A stretch of DNA of 64,000 nt from an uncultured Christensenella sp. GTDB lineage: Bacteria > Bacillota > Clostridia > Christensenellales > Pumilibacteraceae. The notes under the pieces are model-generated. The model was not told the DNA's origin, ran no database searches, and saw only the letters and a program-made list of their open reading frames with translations. The stretch spans positions 4,417 to 68,416 of the forward strand of contig CAJTTD010000011.1 in assembly GCA_910579205.1 (NCBI GenBank), read 5' to 3'. Below, in pieces: positions 17,646 to 36,537 of this stretch. The translations under genes and the position numbers were made by a program. Every line of letters begins with the position of its first letter. Position 1 is the first letter of the stretch.

Positions 17646-19025
17646 TTACTTATTAAGCATGTACTCAAAGCAATCGCGCACTTCGGTTTTAACCGTCCAA
17701 ACGGGCGATATATTTAAATTTTTCAAATACTTGCGGCGAGCGCGCAATATGTAATACAAAAATTTTACGGCAAGCAGCTTGTCGAAGTCGTTGATTTTAT
17801 CGACATTCTTCTTCGCGGCGTCGGAACAGTTTTCACTCGTTAAATATTCCAAAACAGACTGTCCGATATTTTTGCCGTCGGTTGCCACGCCGAACATACT
17901 GTTTACATAATCGTCCGCAGTCATGAAGATATAGTGCTTTACGTCTTCAGCAGTGGGCGCGCCCTCGCTGCTCCGCCCCATGAGTTTTACTATGCGCTTA
18001 AAATTTTTGTCCTCCGCCGAAAAGCCGAAGAACAAACAGTTATACCGCAAAAACGTGTCTATCTGCACCACATTGCGCCACTTATAGCTCGAATACGACA
18101 TATCGTCGTAACTGCGCTCGGACAAAATAAGATTGAGCGCCTCTTTACTGCACAATGCTTTCTTTATGCGCGGCTCTTTATTATATTGCTCTTGAAAATA
18201 CGGCACATATCCGTGAACGTGATAAACGACCGTACTATCGCATTCGTCGGCATACGACAATTGATTATCTATAAATATAGGGATCAATTTTTTATTGGGC
18301 TGTTTGCCCTCAATGTTTTCGTAAACGAATTCAAATGAATTATCGTAGTTATAAGTGAGCACACGATTGACAGCGGCTTTATCTACATATTCGCCTATAG
18401 CGTATAATAAATGATTTTTAAATTGGGGATCGCCTGTCATCGCTTGTTCGACGGATGTATTGTCATCGCCCTTTTTTCGCGCGGAATAATACAGTGATTT
18501 TTCGACTATGGTGTACAGCTCTGCGGCGGCGCGTTCTTTGCGTTCTTCCTTGCCGTATTTTCTGTTATCGGTACTGAATTCGTCGAGCATATTCTCGACA
18601 TACTGCGCCAATTCGTATAGGTCGTATTTTTCAAAACACCCGCCGTACTTACTTTTGCAAATATCAAACTCGGTCTTGTCTTTTATTTCTTTTTCTTTAA
18701 TTTTGTTTTTATCGATCAAAGAAGCATCGAAAATATTGTCGGCAAGGAAATGCCCCACTATTGCGTTTTTAAGCAATTCTTTCCATGTGGGCAAGCCGAT
18801 CGGCTCTCCGCACGACGTTCCCGCACCAAACACCATTGCCTTAGGTTCTTTGCCGCCAACTGAAAACCGAGCGGCAAAGGCTTCTCTATCCTCTGCCATA
18901 GGGAAAAGTTCTTCTTTAAGCAAGGCTATCGCATCGTTAAGCTCGGTTTGGTACAACGATTTTTCGCTTGGAGATAGAAACCCCAACAGCTTGGCAAAAA
19001 CCGAATCTTTTTCGTAATCGCTCAT
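17646..19025 (-). CDS. SIR2-like (SIR2_2 / defence-sirtuin type) putative NAD+ hydrolase
   Basis: The 459-aa product carries MVFGAGTSCGEPIGLPTWKELL, VLTYNYDNSFE (N226), VVYHVHGYV (H271) and CLFFGFSAEDKNFKRIV. The start overlaps the upstream stop (ATGA). The gene is AT-rich relative to its flanks. Confidence 0.75.
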   Translation of the reverse strand: MSDYEKDSVFAKLLGFLSPSEKSLYQTELNDAIALLKEELFPMAEDREAFAARFSVGGKEPKAMVFGAGTSCGEPIGLPTWKELLKNAIVGHFLADNIFDASLIDKNKIKEKEIKDKTEFDICKSKYGGCFEKYDLYELAQYVENMLDEFSTDNRKYGKEERKERAAAELYTIVEKSLYYSARKKGDDNTSVEQAMTGDPQFKNHLLYAIGEYVDKAAVNRVLTYNYDNSFEFVYENIEGKQPNKKLIPIFIDNQLSYADECDSTVVYHVHGYVPYFQEQYNKEPRIKKALCSKEALNLILSERSYDDMSYSSYKWRNVVQIDTFLRYNCLFFGFSAEDKNFKRIVKLMGRSSEGAPTAEDVKHYIFMTADDYVNSMFGVATDGKNIGQSVLEYLTSENCSDAAKKNVDKINDFDKLLAVKFLYYILRARRKYLKNLNISPVWTVKTEVRDCFEYMLNK

Positions 19026-21757
19026 TTTCGATCCCCATACAAGCGCAGCCAGTGCGCAAAAGCAAAATTGACATATTCGTTTCCGTTTATTTCGTTTTCT
19101 ATATCTTTAACGTCATAACCGATCTTTTGTTTGATCTCGTTGCATTTTTCACTATTAGCGTCAACGCAATTCTTTAAATAATCTTTAAGCCCGGCGATAT
19201 ACCTCCTATTCTTATAAGATATGTAGATATCGGTTATATCTTGTATATGGTCTTTTAACGCCACGGCATAAGCAAATGCTTCAGCTTCGCCTTTTGCTTC
19301 ATCTGCACCTTTTGTTTCAAGAAGATGAGGGAACATGATATCGCGGTAAAAGTCGCTTATATATTTCACTGCCGATTTTTCATCGTATTTAAGTTCGCAC
19401 ACATCTTTTACGACCCCGAGCCTTAAAATCATAAACAAATCGTATTGTTCGGGAGCATTGTAAAAGAACTCGACAAGACTGCGTTTTTCGTACAGCATAC
19501 ATAAAATATATCTGATAAATCCGTTTTCCGCTGCGTCCAATCCGGATGCCTTTATCGCCAAGCAATCGGCTACGCACTCTTTATAAAGCCCCGGCATGAC
19601 CTTTTCTATTAAGTACCTTGCCGATTGTGCAGGACTTCCGTTATTATTAAAATAATTTTCTATCGCGCACTTATAGATCGTAGCGACGTGCGGCTTGACC
19701 GACGTAGATGAAAACACTATGTCGTATAGCGAGTACGGCGCATCCGTTCCGCCGTCTATCGAGTTCATCGCTCGCGCGATTTCGGTCATCAATTTTTTAT
19801 TATAGACAGCAACCGCATTATTGTCTATGCTGTCGTCTACTATATTCCCACAAATATCGCCGTTTATATCGTTCACCGTTTTTTCGAGCGCATTTGCCAA
19901 TAATATCGACGCGTTATACCTAAGGTCGATCAAATATTCATCTTTTATTTGCTCAAAATTATTTATGTAAACGTGTTTTAAGTACGTAACGACACTATCA
20001 ATATATTTGTCAACGATCTCTTTATCGATGTCTCGTATCAATTTTTTACGCAAATCAATTAACGACGTACGTATATCGCCTAAAGTTTCGGGCAACCTTT
20101 CGCCGTTATGCTCAACGCTCTCGGCAGACTCGACGTCTTCCAAAAATTTCTCGAACGCGGCGCTTTTATCAAATTGGGAATAACCGCTCTTTAGCTCGGT
20201 TTGCATAATAAGATTATCGAACAGATTTTTTGCTTTGATCCGCAAAATTTCTTCGATAACTGTATCATAACAGTATTCGGCAAAAATGTTGAACAATCCG
20301 TCCAAATACATTTCGGCTCGCTCATCTCGGCATTTTTCGCCGCGAACATGGAAGAACTCGTGAGCTATCCTATATATAGATCCCGTGATGTCCCATAGGC
20401 TTGCCTCGGGCACGGTTACGGCGATAGGGCGTTCTATAGGTTTATTGTCGGTTTTGAGAATATTCTGGTTATAATTGAAAAGGTCTTGATTTGTGATAAT
20501 ATCCACGCCGCCGCTTGTCGCAAAGTTCAATATGGGATCGTATTTATTTTCATCACTATAAATATCGTTCCACATAAAAAGCATGTCGTTATACGCGTAC
20601 AACAACTTTATCAAACCGCCTACGGCATGCCTTATTAATCTTTGATCGTCATAAAATGCGTGCTCGGAATGCCACAGGGGACTTAGCGCTTCGCGAACGG
20701 CGCAAATGCTCCCTTCTACAAAGCTCGAATATTCGTTGATATTTACCGGATCGCCGCTGTTTTTATACATGATCTCGCAAGCAATGCCGTCTTTACCGCT
20801 ATTTATATTTTCTATTATTTTCGTCAAAGAAGATAAAAAGCATCTCAAAAACGCGCCTAAAGTTGACACGATATCGTGGCTGTGTTCCGATTGCGATATC
20901 TGATTATATATATTCAAAATATCGTCCATTGCGTTTTGAACTCGACGATGCGCTTTGTGATCGCCGTGCGCCAATTTTGTATAAGCCGCATTAAAAGATT
21001 TTTGTATCTCTTCCCACAACTGATTTCCGTCATCCGAGTTTGCGCCGTCGTTCTTATTATTAACGTCATCGGGATCGATCAGTTTTATAATATCGTCGTC
21101 TTTAGGATCTTTATTTATTGTTAAGATCCGCTGCTCTAAAAATACTTCAGCATCGCAAACGCCCATTCTAATTTTCTTGAGAAAATTGTCTATCTCATTT
21201 TTTTGGGTCGGATCGCGTTTGACATAATAGACCGCCACGGCTTCGGAACTTCCGAAACTCAAATACACCGCGCAGCCGCAATGCGGTTGGATCTTGCATT
21301 CCTCTTTTGCCTTATCGACTTGATGATGTATAGCGCCATTGACCCAATCATAGTAATTCTCTACCATTTTTTGATTGGTGTGCTCCATGTTGCTATTAAC
21401 AAATTCTTTTATACGCTCATCTGCAATGTTATAAAACACCACGGTAAAATCATAATCGTCATATTTGGATTTTTCTTTTTTGTTTACGGCTTTTACAATA
21501 TCCGCTATAAATTTAGTGGACTCCGATTCTTTAGGCACGCACAAATCGACGGTATAGCCGTCTACATACGCATCCTTTTTGAATGAGCTGCGATATCCGT
21601 GCCATTTATCGAGCAGCGACACCTCTACGCGGTCGTAATGATCGATTATGTCTACATCATTATAATAGTCTGCAAAAGTGATATAAAAAGAGCCGTCCTC
21701 CGTTTTGCGTTGCATCGGAGAAAGGCTCTTTCTTAAAATCACTTTAAGCAAATCCAC
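19022..21757 (-). CDS. 911-aa protein with an HExxH(+24)E zincin-like motif; function unknown (candidate sensor/protease partner of the SIR2 gene)
   Basis: Long uninterrupted ORF. The start is GTG 21757, with GAAAAGG 11 nt upstream; ATG 21715 is an alternative. The motif IAHEFFHVRGEKCRDERAEMYLDGLFNIFAEY spans residues 464-495. I see no Walker A motif. Confidence 0.7.
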   Translation of the reverse strand: MDLLKVILRKSLSPMQRKTEDGSFYITFADYYNDVDIIDHYDRVEVSLLDKWHGYRSSFKKDAYVDGYTVDLCVPKESESTKFIADIVKAVNKKEKSKYDDYDFTVVFYNIADERIKEFVNSNMEHTNQKMVENYYDWVNGAIHHQVDKAKEECKIQPHCGCAVYLSFGSSEAVAVYYVKRDPTQKNEIDNFLKKIRMGVCDAEVFLEQRILTINKDPKDDDIIKLIDPDDVNNKNDGANSDDGNQLWEEIQKSFNAAYTKLAHGDHKAHRRVQNAMDDILNIYNQISQSEHSHDIVSTLGAFLRCFLSSLTKIIENINSGKDGIACEIMYKNSGDPVNINEYSSFVEGSICAVREALSPLWHSEHAFYDDQRLIRHAVGGLIKLLYAYNDMLFMWNDIYSDENKYDPILNFATSGGVDIITNQDLFNYNQNILKTDNKPIERPIAVTVPEASLWDITGSIYRIAHEFFHVRGEKCRDERAEMYLDGLFNIFAEYCYDTVIEEILRIKAKNLFDNLIMQTELKSGYSQFDKSAAFEKFLEDVESAESVEHNGERLPETLGDIRTSLIDLRKKLIRDIDKEIVDKYIDSVVTYLKHVYINNFEQIKDEYLIDLRYNASILLANALEKTVNDINGDICGNIVDDSIDNNAVAVYNKKLMTEIARAMNSIDGGTDAPYSLYDIVFSSTSVKPHVATIYKCAIENYFNNNGSPAQSARYLIEKVMPGLYKECVADCLAIKASGLDAAENGFIRYILCMLYEKRSLVEFFYNAPEQYDLFMILRLGVVKDVCELKYDEKSAVKYISDFYRDIMFPHLLETKGADEAKGEAEAFAYAVALKDHIQDITDIYISYKNRRYIAGLKDYLKNCVDANSEKCNEIKQKIGYDVKDIENEINGNEYVNFAFAHWLRLYGDRK

Positions 21758-30968: not shown

Positions 30969-31027
30969 AGCCGTTAGTTGAAATACGGCGCGAAAAAGCT
31001 CTTGCGAGCAAGCTTTTTCACTTGTAT
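30969..31027. repeat. Intergenic two-hairpin repeat, copy 2 (partner at 5801-5859)
   Basis: Same element as at 5801-5859. GAAAAAGCT pairs with AGCTTTTTC, and GCCGT with ACGGC. It lies 36 nt past the stop of the last RiPP-cluster gene, so it is probably the operon terminator. Confidence 0.7.
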
Positions 31028-31063: not shown

Positions 31064-31822
31064 CTATGCGCAAGGTTTAAAATACAGATTATACGTAACG
31101 GCTTTGTTTTCGGATATTGCCGTTTGAATAAACTGCAACTCGTAGCCCTTTTTTATTACCGAATTTAATTTATCTTGGACCGATCTATCGAAAAACTCGC
31201 TCGGCAGATCGTAGGCTCGTTTCGGCACATCGTATTCCGCATAGAATTTAAGCTTGAATGCGTCGGGGGCAAAATCGGGCGCTGTCATATGCAAGCGCTC
31301 GTCCCCGCAGCGCGGATAAAAAAAAGCACTGCTACAGCCCAAAACGGAGACTACCGCATCATCTATAAATTTTTCGGCAAAGCACGTCGAACCGCTTTTT
31401 TGCAGTCGAAAATACGGGCATACTGCGACGCAGCGTTTGCCCGTAGCGGCGTCTACTCTTATTCCCAACACATGGTTATCGTATGCCGTATTGCTTTCGG
31501 ATAAAAAGTTCTTTAACATTTTCACTTTATCGGCACGGTAGTATGAATGTTCCGACAAAAGATATGACTCCAATTCATGCAAGTCGGCACTGCGCAAAGA
31601 AAAATCGTATTTAACGAATTTATCGCCTTCTTTACCTGCGGAAAAACAAATCAGCTTTTTTTCGGTTACTGCCCGATCGAAAAATTCTATACCTATGCTC
31701 GCGATCGGCCGAACGATTTTATAATATATTCGATCGCGCACTATAAAGCCATCCTCTACCGTGATCGCGTAGAAGTCTATATCGTTCCTTTTACATTCCG
31801 AAACGTCTGTAAATTTATTCAT
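31064..31822 (-). CDS. 252-aa protein of unknown function, last gene of the RiPP-like cluster
   Basis: ATG start 22 nt after the precursor stop. AT-rich. No catalytic motif recognised, no signal peptide and no TM helix. Confidence 0.6.
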   Translation of the reverse strand: MNKFTDVSECKRNDIDFYAITVEDGFIVRDRIYYKIVRPIASIGIEFFDRAVTEKKLICFSAGKEGDKFVKYDFSLRSADLHELESYLLSEHSYYRADKVKMLKNFLSESNTAYDNHVLGIRVDAATGKRCVAVCPYFRLQKSGSTCFAEKFIDDAVVSVLGCSSAFFYPRCGDERLHMTAPDFAPDAFKLKFYAEYDVPKRAYDLPSEFFDRSVQDKLNSVIKKGYELQFIQTAISENKAVTYNLYFKPCA

Positions 31823-31844
31823 TTATCGCTATCGCAAAATTATC

Positions 31845-32048
31845 TTACCAAAAATCGGTGTTGGCAGTGCAGCGCGCCGTACAGTTGTCGTCGCAACTTC
31901 CGCTACAAGAATCGGCGCAACCGCTTATGCAGCTGCCGCTACACGAAAACGCGCACGAAAAAGACACGCCGCATGTCGCCTCACATAGCTTATTGGAAGT
32001 GATGCGCGCTTTTATCTTACACAAAAGCTCCGGATCGATCTTAAACAT
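31845..32048 (-). CDS. Cys-rich RiPP precursor peptide (67 aa; 11 Cys, eight of them at Cx3C periodicity)
   Basis: An AAAGGAGAA RBS lies 6 nt before the ATG. The sequence is MFKIDPELLCKIKARITSNKL-CEATCGVSFSCAFSCSGSCISGCADSCSGSCDDNCTARCTANTDFW. It starts 41 nt downstream of the radical SAM/SPASM gene. Confidence 0.8.
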   Translation of the reverse strand: MFKIDPELLCKIKARITSNKLCEATCGVSFSCAFSCSGSCISGCADSCSGSCDDNCTARCTANTDFW

Positions 32049-32089
32049 TATATTCTCCTTTGATTTTATTTACAAGCAAGTAGTTTTTG

Positions 32090-33205
32090 CTACTGCAAGT
32101 TTTGAATATGTACAATGCTCCGCAACAACGCTTGCTCAGTGTCTTTATCGCACTTAAGCGTCCCGCGCGCCCATTCAATAGCTTTTAGCTTGGCGTTGGC
32201 TGCAAAAATCATTTTATACAATTTGCACCGCGCTTTATCCGGTTTATAAAGATCTCCGCAGCTTAAATAATTACTGCCCAAACAGAACGGACATATCTTC
32301 AGATAATAACAGTCCGCGCATTCACGGTCGAGCAAATCAATGTCAAGTTCATCATGGATATTCGCTTGCTCTGTAGTTATGGCTTTTGATCCGGCGGAGA
32401 TAGGAGCAAAAAGTTGACAAGGATACGCTGTTCCGCGCATGTCGTAACACACCATAGCAGTACCCGTGCCGCAGTATTTTTTTATCTTTTCATTCGACTG
32501 CGTGTCGTAAGCGAGTCTTTCTATTTTAAAATCGAGCATCGAACATTTTTTTATATTCGGGTCGTCCGCATACCAAGAAATAAGATCGTTCAATTGTTCC
32601 GCCAGCGTCTTTACGTTCGATTCGGACAACCAGTCTACCATATATGCCAAATTGCACGCCACCGTAAAACCCAAAGACGTTAAATACTTGACGCTCTCCG
32701 AAAAATACGGCATGGACAGTTCGGACACGGTCATTTTTATCGGCTGTTCCGGATAGTTTTTCAAAAAGAACGCTAAATCTATTTTATCGAAGCTATCCGA
32801 TCGATTTAAATTATGGGCGACACGGTTTCCGTCTAAGCTTAACCCTACGCTGAAATTTTTCCGCGCGCTCAACCACTCGGCAATATCCCCGTGTACCAAT
32901 GTGCCGTTTGTAGTTGCAAAAAACCGTATTTTGCCTTTATAGAACGACATGACATAATCGTAAACTTGCTTTATCAGATCGAAATTCAAAAAAGGCTCGC
33001 CGCCGAAAAACTCTATATAAGTGTTTTCTTTGGGTTTTCCGTAAATAAGCTCTCGATCTATGATCTGCTTGGCGCGATCAAACGTCATGTCAGATGCGGA
33101 CTTGTTGTGTTCGTAACAGTACACGCACGACAGATTGCATCGTTCCGTTACTATCAAAGATATGGTACGCGTGTTAGACTCGTTCATTTCGGTTGTTATA
33201 GCCAT
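32090..33205 (-). CDS. Radical SAM / SPASM-domain peptide maturase
   Basis: ORF 32090..33301. Start set to ATG 33203-33205 (MAITTEMNES), which overlaps the upstream stop (TAATG). The radical SAM motif is CNLSCVYC. The C-terminal Cys cluster CGTGTAMVCYDMRGTAYPC...CADCYYLKICPFC fits a SPASM domain. Confidence 0.85.
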   Translation of the reverse strand: MAITTEMNESNTRTISLIVTERCNLSCVYCYEHNKSASDMTFDRAKQIIDRELIYGKPKENTYIEFFGGEPFLNFDLIKQVYDYVMSFYKGKIRFFATTNGTLVHGDIAEWLSARKNFSVGLSLDGNRVAHNLNRSDSFDKIDLAFFLKNYPEQPIKMTVSELSMPYFSESVKYLTSLGFTVACNLAYMVDWLSESNVKTLAEQLNDLISWYADDPNIKKCSMLDFKIERLAYDTQSNEKIKKYCGTGTAMVCYDMRGTAYPCQLFAPISAGSKAITTEQANIHDELDIDLLDRECADCYYLKICPFCLGSNYLSCGDLYKPDKARCKLYKMIFAANAKLKAIEWARGTLKCDKDTEQALLRSIVHIQNLQ

Positions 33206-34290
33206 TATACAGACACCTTGCCGTCCGAGCATTGAACGATACGCGCTTGCGTGCCGACATTCCATCCGTCGCCTTTTTGCACCGCGCGCCATTCGTCGCA
33301 TGTGCCGCCGTACGATATGCTTTCAAGCCCGTCGCAATCGTAAAAAGCATACGCCCCTATCTCCGACACCGTTTGCGGTATGTATGCGTTTTTTATTCCG
33401 TCGCAATCGTAAAAAGCATAGCTTGATATTTTTTCCAGTCCGTCGTCAAGTATCGCATTAACCAAAAGCCCGTCGTACACAAACAGATCGTGCGTGTAGT
33501 AAGTCGGATTGCAGTACTTATCCGCAAAACTGATTTGACACCATTGCGTAGCAGTGCCGAGATAAACGACGTTTTTGAGCGCACCGCACTTTATAAACGC
33601 TTTTTTGCGAATGTTTTTTATCGACGAGGGGATGGTAATACCGTTCAACCCGCCAAAGCTTCTGAAAGAGCATTTGCTTATACCCGTTACGGGCTTTCCT
33701 TCCACTTCGGCAGCGACAGTCAAATATCGCAGACCTTTCCCGCTGTACCCCACAAGCTCCATTTCGTCTGCGTCCGATTCTTTCAGCAAACGCTCGGTCA
33801 GACTGTAACCCGCGTACATACCGTTCTCATACAAGCGCGGCGTAGAAGCGCCGCTGTCGGCAAACCACATCGTACAGCCCAAAATCGTGATAGGTAGCGA
33901 CACAGTCAGCGCGCATACGTTAGCAACGCGCATAAAACCGCCTTTTGATAAAGCTGTATCTATGATACGGGAAGTAAACAATAACGCCATGCCTATCCCC
34001 GTCATTATCCAAAACAGCTCCGATACGGCAACGGTACAAATTGCACCGACGACACATGAAACACCGCCGACTATCGCGCCTATTACCCCGAATAATGTCG
34101 GATCATCGCACTTACCGAATTCGATACAACCTATCACAAGCAATAAACACAGAACCGCTCCGCCCATAACTATCCACGGCATCACTTTTCCCGTGATCGC
34201 GGCGTCGTAATAATAAGATATAAATACGATCGATATTACGGTCAACACGACTGCGTTAGATGTTCCCAAAATGCGCTCTGCTTTATTCAT
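33205..34290 (-). CDS. Polytopic membrane protein with a C-terminal BspA-type leucine-rich-repeat domain
   Basis: About 5 N-terminal TM helices are followed by LRR_5-like repeats (ITIPSSIKNIRKKAFIKCGALKNV; LEKISSYAFYDCDGIKNAYIPQTVSEIGAYAFYDCDGLESI). No clear SD sequence is present. Confidence 0.65.
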   Translation of the reverse strand: MNKAERILGTSNAVVLTVISIVFISYYYDAAITGKVMPWIVMGGAVLCLLLVIGCIEFGKCDDPTLFGVIGAIVGGVSCVVGAICTVAVSELFWIMTGIGMALLFTSRIIDTALSKGGFMRVANVCALTVSLPITILGCTMWFADSGASTPRLYENGMYAGYSLTERLLKESDADEMELVGYSGKGLRYLTVAAEVEGKPVTGISKCSFRSFGGLNGITIPSSIKNIRKKAFIKCGALKNVVYLGTATQWCQISFADKYCNPTYYTHDLFVYDGLLVNAILDDGLEKISSYAFYDCDGIKNAYIPQTVSEIGAYAFYDCDGLESISYGGTCDEWRAVQKGDGWNVGTQARIVQCSDGKVSV

Positions 34291-34382: not shown

Positions 34383-36173
34383 TCAGCACCAATTGATTTC
34401 GGTTATCAATTCTCCGTTTTTCCCGTTCGTTCGAGATGCCGCCGAAATATCGCAAGTGATCTTTATTTCGTCGCATAAGGCTTTCCCGCCGCTGCCGGGC
34501 GTTCCGTATGCGCCTCTGCTCGCAGTTGTATTTCCCAAGACCGACGCATTCCATCCGGAGGTATCGTTGTCATGCACACCGCCCGCCTTGCCTGTCTTGC
34601 CGCCGTTCCCGCCGACTAACGTAAGACTTCCGCTCGAATACGTCAAGACTGCGGCATTGACAGCGATACCGCCGTCGCCGCCATTGCCGCCGCGTCCGCC
34701 GACCACGTGCTTTTCGCCCTTTGTAAATTCCCTTCTATTACATTCGCTGGCATCGCCGCCGCTGCCGCCGTTGCCGCCCGCGATACGAACTTCGCCTAAA
34801 GATTCGCCGATAAATATAACGATATCGTCGGTTACTCTTACCCCGTCGCCGCCGTCGCCGCCGCGAAACCCGTTTCTGCCGTTACTGCCGTCGCCGCCGT
34901 TGTCGCCGATAGCGCGATTGTAAGCATTCCCGCCGTTGCCGCCGATAACTTCGAGCATATTTTCTCCTGCAAAGACGCTCAAGCTTGCCGCTATAATACC
35001 GTCGCCGCCGCGCCCGCCGTTTTCGACGCCGCTTTTGCCGTCCCCGCCGCGCACTCGCAACGGAGCTCTGCACATTATTTCAAGCGTATTATTTACTAAA
35101 TTTATAGCCGGCGCACCGTTTTCGCTCGTTCCGATATAATTATTTGTTCCTATCGTTTCTATTATTATTGTTCTGTCGCTCGTAGAAGTTACTGTACCCC
35201 AAGGAGAGTCGCCGATTATATTGGCGTTTTTCAAAATTATGTGAGCCGCGCTGTCAGAGCCGCCGCCTATGGAAATATTGATATTCTCATAGCTTGTTTC
35301 CGGATCGCCGTACAACAGCGCATTTGCGTTTTGACCGGAAAGCACGATCGTGCCCGATGCCGATCTCAGATCCACCGCCCGTCCCAATAACAGCGCCGAA
35401 TATTCGCCGTCGGATGTTATAGCTCCGCTCGCAACGCTTTCGCCGTCCGCAGTCCAACTGATAACGTCCAAGTCGCCGATTTTTAAACCCAATGCGGCGT
35501 CGGCGATATCCGTTCCGTACTCCACCGTAAGCTCCTCTATCAAGGTTTTGTCGTCGCCCGTACCGTTGAAAAACTTTACATTTAACTTTTCGTACCCGAC
35601 GTCGGCATAAAGCTTCACCTTATATCCGTCGCCTTGTTCATAATTGGAATGATCGAAGACTTTGTAATTTTGAGTAGCGCGCCCGTCGCCGTCCGCAATA
35701 AGATCGCCGCCGTTCGACGCCGTGCGCCATCCGTTGAATACTCTGTGAACGCCGACATTCAGTATAGGCAATGCCCCGAGTTCTTTACCGCTCTCTGCGC
35801 TTATTGCGCCGTCGCTCGACAATGTTCCTTCATCGTAACAAAATTCGAATTTGTACTCCCGTGCGACAAATCTGACGAAAAGCACAATGTCTTTGGCATC
35901 CAAAAACGGTCTTACGCTCCGTCCGTCCGCGTTTACGTATTTTGTCCCGTCGACCTCCGAATCGTACAAACCGTCAAATACATATCCGTCCTTAACGGGT
36001 ATTTCGGGTATTTCATACACGTCATCCAAGCGCACTTCTATTACATATTCGTTGTCGTATGCGTATCGAACAGTATAAACCTTATCCGCATCTTTATCTT
36101 TGCAACCCATCGATATAAAAGTCGATAGTGCGACTGCAAAAATAAAACCTAATACTATCCCAACTTTTTTCAT
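34383..36173 (-). CDS. Lipoprotein with Listeria-Bacteroides (Flg_new) repeats and a Gly-rich GGxGG beta-helix-like region
   Basis: ORF 34383..36236. Start set to ATG 36171-36173, with a GAGGAAAAA RBS. The lipobox is in MKKVGIVLGFIFAVALSTFISMGC. Supporting segments are VKDGYVFDGLYD and VFNGWRT, then GGDGKSG..GGRGGDG..GGNGGN..GGDGGDG..GGNGGSGG..GGRGGNGGDGG..GGNGGKTG. Confidence 0.75.
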   Translation of the reverse strand: MKKVGIVLGFIFAVALSTFISMGCKDKDADKVYTVRYAYDNEYVIEVRLDDVYEIPEIPVKDGYVFDGLYDSEVDGTKYVNADGRSVRPFLDAKDIVLFVRFVAREYKFEFCYDEGTLSSDGAISAESGKELGALPILNVGVHRVFNGWRTASNGGDLIADGDGRATQNYKVFDHSNYEQGDGYKVKLYADVGYEKLNVKFFNGTGDDKTLIEELTVEYGTDIADAALGLKIGDLDVISWTADGESVASGAITSDGEYSALLLGRAVDLRSASGTIVLSGQNANALLYGDPETSYENINISIGGGSDSAAHIILKNANIIGDSPWGTVTSTSDRTIIIETIGTNNYIGTSENGAPAINLVNNTLEIMCRAPLRVRGGDGKSGVENGGRGGDGIIAASLSVFAGENMLEVIGGNGGNAYNRAIGDNGGDGSNGRNGFRGGDGGDGVRVTDDIVIFIGESLGEVRIAGGNGGSGGDASECNRREFTKGEKHVVGGRGGNGGDGGIAVNAAVLTYSSGSLTLVGGNGGKTGKAGGVHDNDTSGWNASVLGNTTASRGAYGTPGSGGKALCDEIKITCDISAASRTNGKNGELITEINWC

Positions 36174-36203: not shown

Positions 36204-36232
36204 AATATAACAAACGAAAAAAGCCTTGTCAA
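36204..36232 (-). promoter_or_regulatory. Sigma-A promoter for the Gly-rich lipoprotein gene (and possibly the RiPP cluster)
   Basis: Minus strand reads TTGACA (36232-36227), a 17-nt spacer, then TATATT (36209-36204), about 30 nt upstream of ATG 36173. Confidence 0.55.
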
Positions 36233-36288: not shown

Positions 36289-36537
36289 ATGAATCTAAAC
36301 CAATTTATATCGGAAAAGTTGGAAAAACTGCGCAAGGAAAAAGGCTTAGGCGTATACACACTATGCAACAAAGCGGCTATATCTTATGAAACGTACCGAA
36401 GCATACGCAAAAACCGCAACAAGGATATATATTTAAGAACTCTGCTTATTCTGCTCCAAACTCTTAACATTTCACCGAAAGAATTTTTCGACGATCCCGC
36501 GTTCACAGACGGCACTATAGATCTGGACTTTAAGTAA
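36289..36537 (+). CDS. XRE-family HTH transcriptional regulator
   Basis: The 82-aa product carries LRKEKGLGVYTLCNKAAISYETYRSIRKNR...TLLILLQTLNISPKEFF. It is divergent from the lipoprotein/RiPP operon. Confidence 0.75.
   Translation: MNLNQFISEKLEKLRKEKGLGVYTLCNKAAISYETYRSIRKNRNKDIYLRTLLILLQTLNISPKEFFDDPAFTDGTIDLDFK

Follow-up and report, generated by a model that had tools for sequence, protein, structure and literature searches.

A candidate gene cluster of gut Clostridia that pairs a radical-SAM cysteine-repeat peptide with a predicted minimal ABBA-fold prenyltransferase

We analyzed a 64,000-nucleotide (nt) stretch of DNA from an uncultured Christensenella sp. (contig CAJTTD010000011.1; the whole stretch is called the window below) and identified a block of genes at 36537-30990 that probably encodes a pathway for a peptide that is made on the ribosome and modified after translation (RiPP). 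The pathway would have two tailoring steps, giving a thioether-laddered peptide that is prenylated on Trp67. A radical S-adenosylmethionine enzyme with a SPASM-type C-terminus (rSAM) would carry out the first step on a 67-amino-acid (aa) peptide. The second would fall to a 252-aa protein for which prenylation of the peptide Trp is, in our judgement, the likelier function, given its predicted fold, its remote homology, the isomerase-like genes found in related clusters and the correlation of its gene with a Trp in the peptide. The first-pass annotation of this DNA had placed four minus-strand open reading frames (ORFs) here, for a leucine-rich repeat (LRR) protein, the rSAM, the peptide and the 252-aa protein. 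All four were found where it had placed them, but the conserved unit proved to be larger and also takes in a gene for a 596-aa lipoprotein-like protein and a divergent helix-turn-helix (HTH) gene. The features of the block are as follows.

36289..36537, plus strand: divergent XRE-type HTH gene, 82 aa (Pfam HTH_26, E 5.6e-7)
36204..36232, minus strand: sigma-70-like promoter candidate (TTGACA, 17-nt spacer, TATATT with a TG motif)
34383..36173, minus strand: 596-aa lipoprotein-like gene, first of the co-directional block
33205..34290, minus strand: 361-aa membrane LRR_5 gene (Pfam LRR_5, E 1.7e-18)
32090..33205, minus strand: 371-aa rSAM/SPASM gene (Pfam Radical_SAM and Fer4_12 matches)
31845..32048, minus strand: 67-aa precursor peptide gene (leader, C-X3 core and TANTDFW tail)
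31064..31822, minus strand: 252-aa gene with a predicted ABBA (PT-barrel) fold
30990..31021, minus strand: terminator-like hairpin flanked by an A-tract and a U-tract, which closes the block ahead of guaA

In the proposed pathway, the rSAM would act on the eight-Cys C-X3 core of the peptide, which lies behind a conserved helical leader. As in PapB and CteB, a 5'-deoxyadenosyl radical would take a hydrogen from a nearby residue and the Cys sulfur would bond to that carbon; by homology, the outcome would be a ladder of small thioether rings. The 252-aa protein, as a miniature alpha-beta-beta-alpha (ABBA) prenyltransferase, would move a prenyl group to the indole of Trp67 in ...NTDFW. The group would most likely be dimethylallyl, with dimethylallyl diphosphate (DMAPP) as the likeliest donor, since what relatives carry beside these genes is an isomerase-like gene and not one for a chain-elongating synthase. 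Neither leader removal nor export is encoded in the cluster; the first-pass annotation had rightly noted that the operon contains neither an ABC exporter nor a peptidase. The LRR protein, anchored in the membrane, and the lipoprotein-like protein would be co-transcribed surface proteins.

The 252-aa protein and the C-terminal tryptophan

The 252-aa protein had no sequence match in Pfam, NCBIfam or the PDB, whether searched as a single sequence or as a 14-sequence profile. A word-indexed homologue search with the protein returned only a 96%-identical copy, and the same search with the family alignment returned two proteins. When 1.84 billion cluster representatives were searched exhaustively with HMMER, 14 relatives were recovered, one of them a 96% copy and the rest of 20-37% identity. 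The family alignment contained the strand motifs DYY..T, CFS.G, KYDF, CLYF, LIALDFS...FKLKFYF, G.Q.A and TYNFYFK, with Y33, Y137, D183, K190, K192, Y194, Q233, A235 and Y247 invariant and K71 and D73 nearly so. Along the strands, the conserved polar and Tyr residues alternated with hydrophobic residues. An AlphaFold2 (AF2) model built on the family alignment (predicted local distance difference test score, pLDDT, 87; predicted TM-score, pTM, 0.87) had ten strands arranged in five hairpins with intervening helices. When this model was compared with the PDB by Foldseek, the top 29 matches were all aromatic prenyltransferases, mostly of the indole type, with query-normalised TM-scores of 0.5-0.57; they included TleC, CdpNPT, AnaPT, AmbP1, DMATS, CloQ, FunA and the RiPP geranyltransferase PirF. 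A second AF2 model, of the distant homologue P0129 (pLDDT 90.7), also had ten strands, and all 50 of its Foldseek matches listed were prenyltransferases, with TM-scores up to 0.65; AmbP3 was also among the matches of the two models. On these models, the 252-aa protein very probably has the ABBA (PT-barrel) fold. The first-pass annotation had regarded both accessory proteins as lying outside the standard RiPP components. This held for the LRR protein but not for the 252-aa protein, a predicted ABBA prenyltransferase, an enzyme class that is known to tailor RiPPs.

The gene for the 252-aa protein accompanied the rSAM and peptide genes in eight lineages, with differing genomic contexts and gene orders, over a divergence that reached down to 26% identity for the barrel and 42% for the rSAM. 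In more distant rSAM relatives (38-42% identity), the equivalent position was occupied by DMATS-like proteins of 283-312 aa. Two of the three DMATS-like proteins tested matched Trp_DMAT weakly (24.8 and 15.4 bits; gathering score 25) and TIGR03429 weakly as well, and PDB sequence searches with the DMATS-like proteins gave nothing meaningful. Profile-profile alignment by hhalign of the 252-aa family with these DMATS-like proteins of sister clusters gave a probability of 96.5% (E 8.9e-10, 233 columns) and set D183, K192, Y194 and Y247 opposite invariant residues of the DMATS-like group. Aligned with a single DMATS-like sequence, the family gave a weak result (4%).

Related clusters also carried a gene whose best match was isopentenyl-diphosphate isomerase. 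Such an isomerase-like gene lay with the 252-aa family in L085/L089, L092 and L175 (L numbers denote related loci) and with DMATS-like proteins in L138, L142, L147 and L148; most clusters with DMATS-like proteins had one, and in L168 it was detected by similarity only. The isomerase-like genes of L089, L092 and L148 were scanned against NCBIfam, and the others, such as that of L175, were found by similarity to them. The gene orders with the 252-aa family were as follows.

L085/L089: rSAM, isomerase-like, peptide, barrel
L092: rSAM, peptide, barrel, isomerase-like
L175: rSAM, peptide, barrel, isomerase-like

These observations bear on an alternative that we regard as improbable, namely that the barrel is a non-catalytic peptide-binding partner or chaperone, which would replace a missing leader-recognition element and present the precursor. 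The window rSAM has no element for RiPP recognition (RRE) at its N-terminus, since its CX3CX2C motif begins at residue 23 and CteB aligned with it only from CteB residue 93; in PapB, residues 1-85 make up an RRE (PMC12715619). The barrel is also small for an enzyme of this fold, with a family length of 243-290 aa where every structural match in the PDB was longer (287-425 aa), and it falls in no curated prenyltransferase family. However, most homologous rSAM/peptide pairs have neither an RRE nor a 252-aa protein, so the rSAM needs no such partner. The invariant Lys/Lys/Tyr/Asp residues align with invariant residues of the DMATS-like proteins, isopentenyl-diphosphate isomerase-like genes beside the barrel gene would make no sense for a chaperone, and the presence of the barrel tracks the C-terminus of the peptide and not its leader.

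The relation to the peptide C-terminus was seen when we compared the ends of the precursors. Those found with a prenyltransferase or prenyltransferase-like gene were of five kinds.

...NTDFW: window, L081 and the fifth of five L091 precursors
...SSGW: L082, L085-090, L132
...CTSW: L141/142/148/166, L164
...AWD or ...GWD: L138, L158, L168, L005, L156
...CTWH: L152

Where the clusters had no prenyltransferase-like gene, the peptides ended in ...NSR, ...HSR, ...HTR, ...KKR and others. A Trp stood within the last two positions in 14 of the 16 lineages with a prenyltransferase gene as against 1 of the 36 in which no such gene was present (Fisher p = 1e-9). With the 252-aa family taken by itself, Trp was the very last residue in 6/8 versus 1/36 (p = 3e-5). 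The lineages are related, so that the test overstates their independence and these p-values are indicative only. In a neighbor-joining tree of the rSAM proteins, the 252-aa family occupied three separate positions, and a clade without the gene (L083/L084/L087, with peptides ending in TR or SR) was sister to the main gene-bearing clade. The scattered positions and the gene-less sister clade argue that the C-terminal Trp tracks the prenyltransferase gene and not descent.

Two members of the 252-aa family departed from this pattern: the L092 and L175 peptides end in ...ADMPK and ...LFDTK, and both clusters have an isomerase-like gene. They lend some weight to the idea that the 252-aa protein is an active prenyltransferase with another target, which could be a Cys thiol (11 are available in the peptide), another residue or terminus of the peptide, or a free small molecule. 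Ser/Thr, Tyr, His, Arg and peptide termini are among the known targets of ABBA enzymes (PMC10853753). We consider such a target unlikely in view of the 14 of 16 lineages just described. Moreover, the first repeat of both exceptions keeps a conserved Trp (CSW[TN]C), indole prenyltransferases were the barrel's best structural matches, and Cys-rich cores are just as present in clusters that lack the gene.

Several points weigh against the assignment of the 252-aa protein as a Trp prenyltransferase. None of the 14 members of the family matched a curated prenyltransferase family (Trp_DMAT, TIGR03429, PTase_Orf2 and the cyanobactin F family) even at E <= 10, and the search of PDB sequences with the protein itself gave nothing significant. 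The Foldseek E-values were modest (about 1e-5 to 1e-3), with root-mean-square deviations of 6-9 A. In ABBA enzymes, basic and Tyr residues inside the barrel hold the diphosphate and shield the carbocation; that K71, K190, K192 and the tyrosines would face the lumen in this way is judged from the strand alternation pattern only. The lack of a C-terminal Trp in L092 and L175 and the relatedness of the lineages in the Fisher test count in the same direction. The isomerase-like genes scored below the NF002995 cutoff of 127 bits (L089 114 bits and L092 90 bits, with L089, L092 and L148 together spanning 90-114), and the 64-kb window held no isomerase gene. Finally, no Shine-Dalgarno sequence could be recognized for the 252-aa gene in the 22 nt that separate it from the peptide stop codon (31823-31844). 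The peptide gene, on the other hand, has the strong ribosome-binding site (RBS) that the first-pass annotation had pointed out, AAAGGAG at 7 nt 5' of its ATG; this difference would favor a high ratio of precursor to enzyme, or re-initiation.

The radical-SAM/SPASM enzyme and its C-X3 precursor

The rSAM matched Pfam Radical_SAM with E 3.7e-12, and the cysteines of its CX3CX2C motif (C23, C27 and C30) were invariant in 28 homologues. Its SPASM-type cysteines C245, C263, C296, C299, C305, C308 and C327 were invariant in the same number of homologues, with the spacing C245-X12-G-X4-C263, then C296-X2-C299-X5-C305-X2-C308, then C327. The C-terminal seven-Cys SPASM pattern serves auxiliary clusters and canonically has X3 as its last spacing, where the window enzyme has X2; the Pfam SPASM model itself did not match the window rSAM. 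The best NCBIfam match was to the PapB family NF047865 (148.6 bits; cutoff 340), followed by the CXXX-repeat maturase TIGR04115 (118.4 bits; cutoff 350). The SCIFF maturase model TIGR03974 gave 83.8 bits against a cutoff of 425. Membership in the SCIFF family and PapB equivalence were both rejected, as these scores are far below the cutoffs. The closest solved structure by sequence was CteB (5wgg, E 1.7e-13), with residues 9-331 of the query aligned to 93-439 of the chain; since the alignment starts only at residue 93, the N-terminal leader-recognition (RRE) domain is missing from the window rSAM. The family comprised 941 homologues, mostly from uncultured Clostridia.

The 67-aa peptide (MFKIDPELLCKIKARITSNKLCEATCGVSFSCAFSCSGSCISGCADSCSGSCDDNCTARCTANTDFW) has a leader that starts with MFKIDPELLCKIKARITSNKL, a core of the form (C-X3)7-C from C32 to C60 and the C-terminal tail TANTDFW. 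Eight of its 11 cysteines (C32-C60) are in exact C-X3 register. The seven spacers of the core (AFS, SGS, ISG, ADS, SGS, DDN and TAR) consist mostly of Ser, Gly, Thr, Asn and Asp and have no fixed acceptor. Among 170 loci compared, dozens of lineages had, beside the rSAM homologue, a peptide whose leader reads MF(K/Q)L..EL..KIK...L.P and whose core is of the C-X3 kind. The proposed pairing of a SPASM rSAM maturase with a Cys-rich precursor was thereby borne out, and the small ORF, whose lack of conservation beside homologous rSAM genes had been named as grounds for refuting it, is conserved there.

The peptide scored 14.2 bits (E 0.034; cutoff 50) against TIGR04117 and 11.3 bits (cutoff 20) against TIGR04114. 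Its orthologs in L081 and L091 carry a precomputed, weak annotation as PF27846 (tSAM_targ_Cxxx_rpt), a model that is missing from the Pfam copy used for our scans. Against the SCIFF model PF13165, the window peptide gave no match even at E <= 10, which together with the maturase score agrees with the earlier view that the system is not SCIFF. The Cys density of the peptide, on the other hand, is not the unusual trait it had been taken for, because rSAM targets with C-X3 repeats are already modeled (TIGR04114/04117 and PF27846), even though the scores of this peptide are below their thresholds. From its sequence, we class the peptide as a relative of the computationally defined CXXX-repeat targets and not of SCIFF.

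In the core, the residue at i+4 after each Cys is the next Cys, and there is no Cys-X3-Asp/Glu motif. That the Cys-X3-Asp motif of PapB is missing weighs against the thioether ladder. The rSAM might make no non-alpha thioethers and instead form alpha-carbon (sactionine) links, carbon-carbon links or epimerised residues, or the cysteines might serve mainly as metal ligands. All characterized maturase models score far below cutoff on this enzyme, and the core lacks both the Cys-X3-Asp/Glu motif and a fixed acceptor in its spacers, points that speak for such a reading. We nevertheless hold it to be rather unlikely, given that PapB, the CXXX-repeat family and CteB are Cys-dependent thioether systems or presumed relatives of these, and that the four-residue periodicity of the cysteines is strict across many lineages, which argues that the cysteines are the reacting residues. 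A ladder of thioether rings is therefore the reading we keep for the first step.

We noted further variation among related precursors. In L091 (3284-4263; rSAM 68% identical), five tandem precursors share a leader and differ in their cores and ends (...SENR, ...ENWAN, ...KKKPH, ...GWSPCIVK and ...NTDFW). Only the last of them, which adjoins the prenyltransferase gene, has NTDFW, and a 421-aa multi-pass membrane protein follows. Of eight peptides sampled where the cluster has no prenyltransferase gene, four had a strongly cationic core (net +5 to +7) and the end ...(N/H)SR; they belong to a group that is common in human-gut metagenomes (e.g. L097, L106, L116 and L118). Cores with a C-terminal Trp from gene-containing clusters were mostly acidic, with a net charge of 0 to -4 (e.g. 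window, L081, L082 and L132). The cationic and acidic groups may have different targets or roles.

Operon layout, surface proteins and sister clusters

The five co-directional genes are separated by gaps of 92, -1, 41 and 22 nt, with one terminator-like hairpin at the end of the block. The overlap of the LRR stop codon and the rSAM start codon by TAATG, described in the first-pass annotation, is present in the sequence. So is its terminator-like repeat, a hairpin at 31021-30990 with A- and U-tracts on its flanks and a 12-bp stem; the surrounding 96 nt fold at -27.2 kcal/mol (z = -2.46), and a consensus scan did not pick the hairpin up. The promoter candidate at 36204..36232 lies just 5' of the MKKVG... 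start at 36173 and has 11/12 consensus matches, the best in the region; it is supported by the consensus alone, and such sites are just as numerous as shuffled sequence would lead one to expect. A promoter-like site at 32075-32047 was discarded because its -10 box overlaps the peptide start codon and its use would exclude the peptide RBS, and terminator-like sites within the peptide gene were taken as chance. Rfam and tRNA scans of the window gave no matches. The G+C count of 21/60 for 31081-31140 was exact. The description of the region as an AT-rich block fitted the rSAM and 252-aa genes (G+C 0.43) and the divergent HTH gene (0.39) but neither the peptide gene (0.51) nor the LRR gene (0.485); the window average stood at 0.507 and the flanking guaA and typA at 0.54-0.55. 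A second AT-rich block of the window (17646-21757, minus strand; G+C 0.39-0.42) contains a pair of overlapping genes, for a 459-aa SIR2_2-domain protein (E 2.5e-12), which also gave a weak ThsA-like match in PADLOC (E 2.4e-6), and for a 911-aa protein that matched nothing in Pfam or PADLOC; the pair may form a small defense island.

Public gene calls made independently for a metagenome-assembled genome (MAG; GCA_949416565.1) yield the same products of 596, 354/361, 371, 67 and 252 aa. In L081, from a related MAG, the gene order is HTH, lipoprotein-like, LRR, rSAM, peptide, 252-aa gene and guaA, with identities to the window proteins of 75% for the rSAM, 65% for the peptide, 55% for the LRR protein, 50% for the lipoprotein and 37% for the 252-aa protein. 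By sequence comparison, the ORFs of the block are conserved coding genes. A small divergent HTH gene was found at the same position in L081, L083, L085/L089, L091 and L174, and the XRE-type HTH protein probably regulates the operon.

The LRR protein begins with about five hydrophobic helices (N-terminal ~165 aa), which are followed by BspA-type LRR_5 repeats and a GGTxxEW...C.DG motif at the C-terminus; if the N-terminus is cytoplasmic, the repeats would face outward. Its gene is the sole LRR_5 gene in the 64 kb, and its LRR part is matched by a 285-aa LRR protein whose gene lies directly upstream of the rSAM gene in L083. A survey of homologous clusters for LRR genes, as the first-pass annotation had proposed, found that in all 9 lineages with a match it was on the rSAM strand, in 8 of them within 3 kb. 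The LRR_5 gene is upstream of the rSAM in L081, L083 and the window, and also in L150, at a distance of about 2.7 kb; it overlaps or just follows the rSAM in L002, L160 and L139/140, and it lies between the prenyltransferase and isomerase-like genes in L141/142; such genes occur both with and without a prenyltransferase gene. The recurring LRR_5 proteins range from 200 to about 1580 aa, and their genes were located at the following sites.

L083: 5066-5923
L142: 8075-8677
L002: 7077-10448
L160: 6284-11032
L139: 6503-8113
L150: 397-2226

From these gene positions, the recurrence of LRR proteins in rSAM/peptide operons looks non-random. The lipoprotein-like protein has a signal peptide ending in ...ISMGC, a Listeria-Bacteroides repeat (Pfam Flg_new, E 2.5e-4, below the gathering score) and then GGxGG-rich repeats; its start at 36173 was taken from homologues and the public gene calls. 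The same architecture is found upstream of the rSAM in L091. The gene is confined to the closest relatives (window, L081 and L091) and so may be plain synteny.

Extended to all three neighbors, this would mean that the 252-aa, LRR and lipoprotein-like genes adjoin the rSAM and peptide genes through inherited synteny without functional meaning. Only the closest relatives have the lipoprotein-like gene and the transmembrane portion of the LRR protein, and L081 shares the downstream guaA, so part of the arrangement is plain chromosomal synteny. As an explanation of the whole block it is nonetheless very improbable. For the 252-aa gene it is excluded, as this gene travels with the rSAM and peptide genes in eight lineages of varied context and order. 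As to the LRR gene, it is on the rSAM strand in each of the nine lineages with a match, in eight within 3 kb, and its position varies (e.g. L142). A functional association of the 252-aa gene with the rSAM and peptide genes thus remains our reading.

Clusters throughout a wide rSAM clade may follow the same logic, with DMATS-like prenyltransferases, isomerase-like genes and, in some cases, kinase-like ones, a generalization for and against which we see about equal grounds. A gene of 332-340 aa follows the rSAM directly in L138 (6107-7129), L005 (7099-8112), L158 (6067-7065) and L149 (1255-2265). The clusters with this gene have DMATS-like prenyltransferases and peptides ending in ...AWD; on the short contig of L149, the kinase-like gene is present and neither a prenyltransferase gene nor a peptide is visible. 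The L138 protein, the sole one of this class that was scanned, is Ser/Thr-kinase-like and weakly resembles (E 1e-12) the kinase domains of class III/IV lanthionine synthetases. ORFs of 342-347 aa are in the same position in L156 (6130-7173) and L152 (6091-7119). The kinase-like gene hints at a third modification in those sister clusters. In L175 (1-4543), the genes just ahead of the cluster, which sits directly downstream of them, encode a serine recombinase, Rep (REP_ORF2-G2P) and a tyrosine integrase; this suggests that it is carried on a mobile element. Some clusters are flanked by a second, larger rSAM gene of 463-496 aa (L174, 6238-7834; L156, 3166-4682), whose partner is a distinct family of 34-35-aa peptides, MT(I/V)..GY.EE.L..VFE...C.(C)C..CS.D; the two probably form a separate rSAM/peptide system.

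Relation to known systems and significance

The system resembles PapB/PapA (freyrasin, Paenibacillus polymyxa) in having a SPASM maturase and a precursor with many regularly spaced cysteines. The match to PapB is near full length (window rSAM residues 13-322 on model 3-330), but at 148.6 bits against the cutoff of 340 the window rSAM is not a PapB equivalog. It also lacks the N-terminal RRE that PapB has at 1-85 (PMC12715619), the core has Cys at i+4 where PapA has Cys-X3-Asp motifs, and a prenyltransferase, predicted in the window cluster, has not been reported alongside PapB. With the CXXX-repeat system (TIGR04115 with TIGR04114/04117/04118 and PF27846) it shares Cys-Xaa-Xaa-Xaa repeats beside a short SPASM rSAM; it differs in scoring below the cutoffs, in the position of the precursor downstream of the rSAM in this clade, and in the C-terminal Trp tail and prenyltransferase gene that the clade adds. 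Our literature searches on the CXXX repeat and TIGR04115 found no chemical characterization. CteB/CteA (thermocellin, SCIFF) offers a thioether-forming SPASM enzyme and the closest solved structure, 5wgg, but CteB has the N-terminal RRE that is absent from the window rSAM, and SCIFF models were unmatched.

For the second step, the predicted model shares the ten-strand antiparallel alpha-beta-beta-alpha barrel with the DMATS-type indole enzymes CdpNPT, AnaPT, TleC and DMATS1, with AmbP1/AmbP3 and CloQ, and with the RiPP enzymes PirF (cyanobactin F family) and MppC (lanthipeptide), and the K-x-K-x-Y strand plus the Asp and Tyr of the 252-aa family align with DMATS-like invariants. ABBA prenyltransferases are known as tailoring enzymes of lasso peptides, cyanobactins and lanthipeptides (PMC12715784, PMC11002830), and they prenylate Trp of lanthipeptides after ring formation (PMC12715784). 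MppC is such a RiPP tailoring enzyme alongside a ring-forming enzyme (PMC12715784). The partner here is different, being an rSAM peptide of anaerobic Firmicutes and not a cyanobactin, lanthipeptide or lasso peptide. Prenylation of a C-terminal Trp in a Firmicute RiPP is known from PalQ, and of an internal Trp from ComQ (PMC10853753). PalQ/PalX and ComQ/ComX thus resemble our system in placing the prenyl group on Trp, and PalQ strictly needs a C-terminal Trp (PMC10853753). In the PalX core, DNVRRFFW, the final Trp is preceded by an aromatic residue (PMC10853753), as it is in ...TDFW of the window peptide, and the preference of PalQ for a Gly-Trp end (PMC13290415) may be compared with the relatives ending in ...SSGW. 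This likeness is functional only, since PalQ and ComQ belong to the isoprenoid-synthase superfamily (PMC10853753), whose fold is all-alpha and has an aspartate-rich motif, and the predicted fold of the 252-aa protein is a beta barrel. Their peptides are not rSAM cross-linked, and their clusters have a histidine kinase, which the window cluster lacks. A 2026 review of peptide prenylation (PMC13290415) does not mention radical SAM, and in literature outside subscription-only journals we found no report that pairs a prenyltransferase with rSAM-modified peptides.

What would be new, then, is the combination of a CXXX-type rSAM peptide system with ABBA prenylation through an unrecognized minimal family, both chemistries being known separately. 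We see about even odds for the broader proposal that gut Clostridia have an undescribed RiPP class, in which an rSAM-stapled Cys ladder is joined to a prenylated C-terminal Trp by a new minimal (~250 aa) ABBA family. If true, rSAM Cys cross-linking and ABBA-type Trp prenylation would be joined in one natural pathway. The 252-aa proteins would be a new, very small prenyltransferase family that may serve C-terminal peptide lipidation, for which PalQ and cyanobactin enzymes are already under development. The unexplored clusters of animal and human gut Firmicutes, in which an rSAM and a prenyltransferase are often joined by an isomerase-like gene and at times by a kinase-like one, may have lipidated signals or antimicrobials as products. 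The recurrence of surface LRR proteins in these operons raises the question of their part, and the gene content suggests that such clusters may make lipidated peptides, possibly signals or surface-anchored, that are linked to the membrane LRR proteins.

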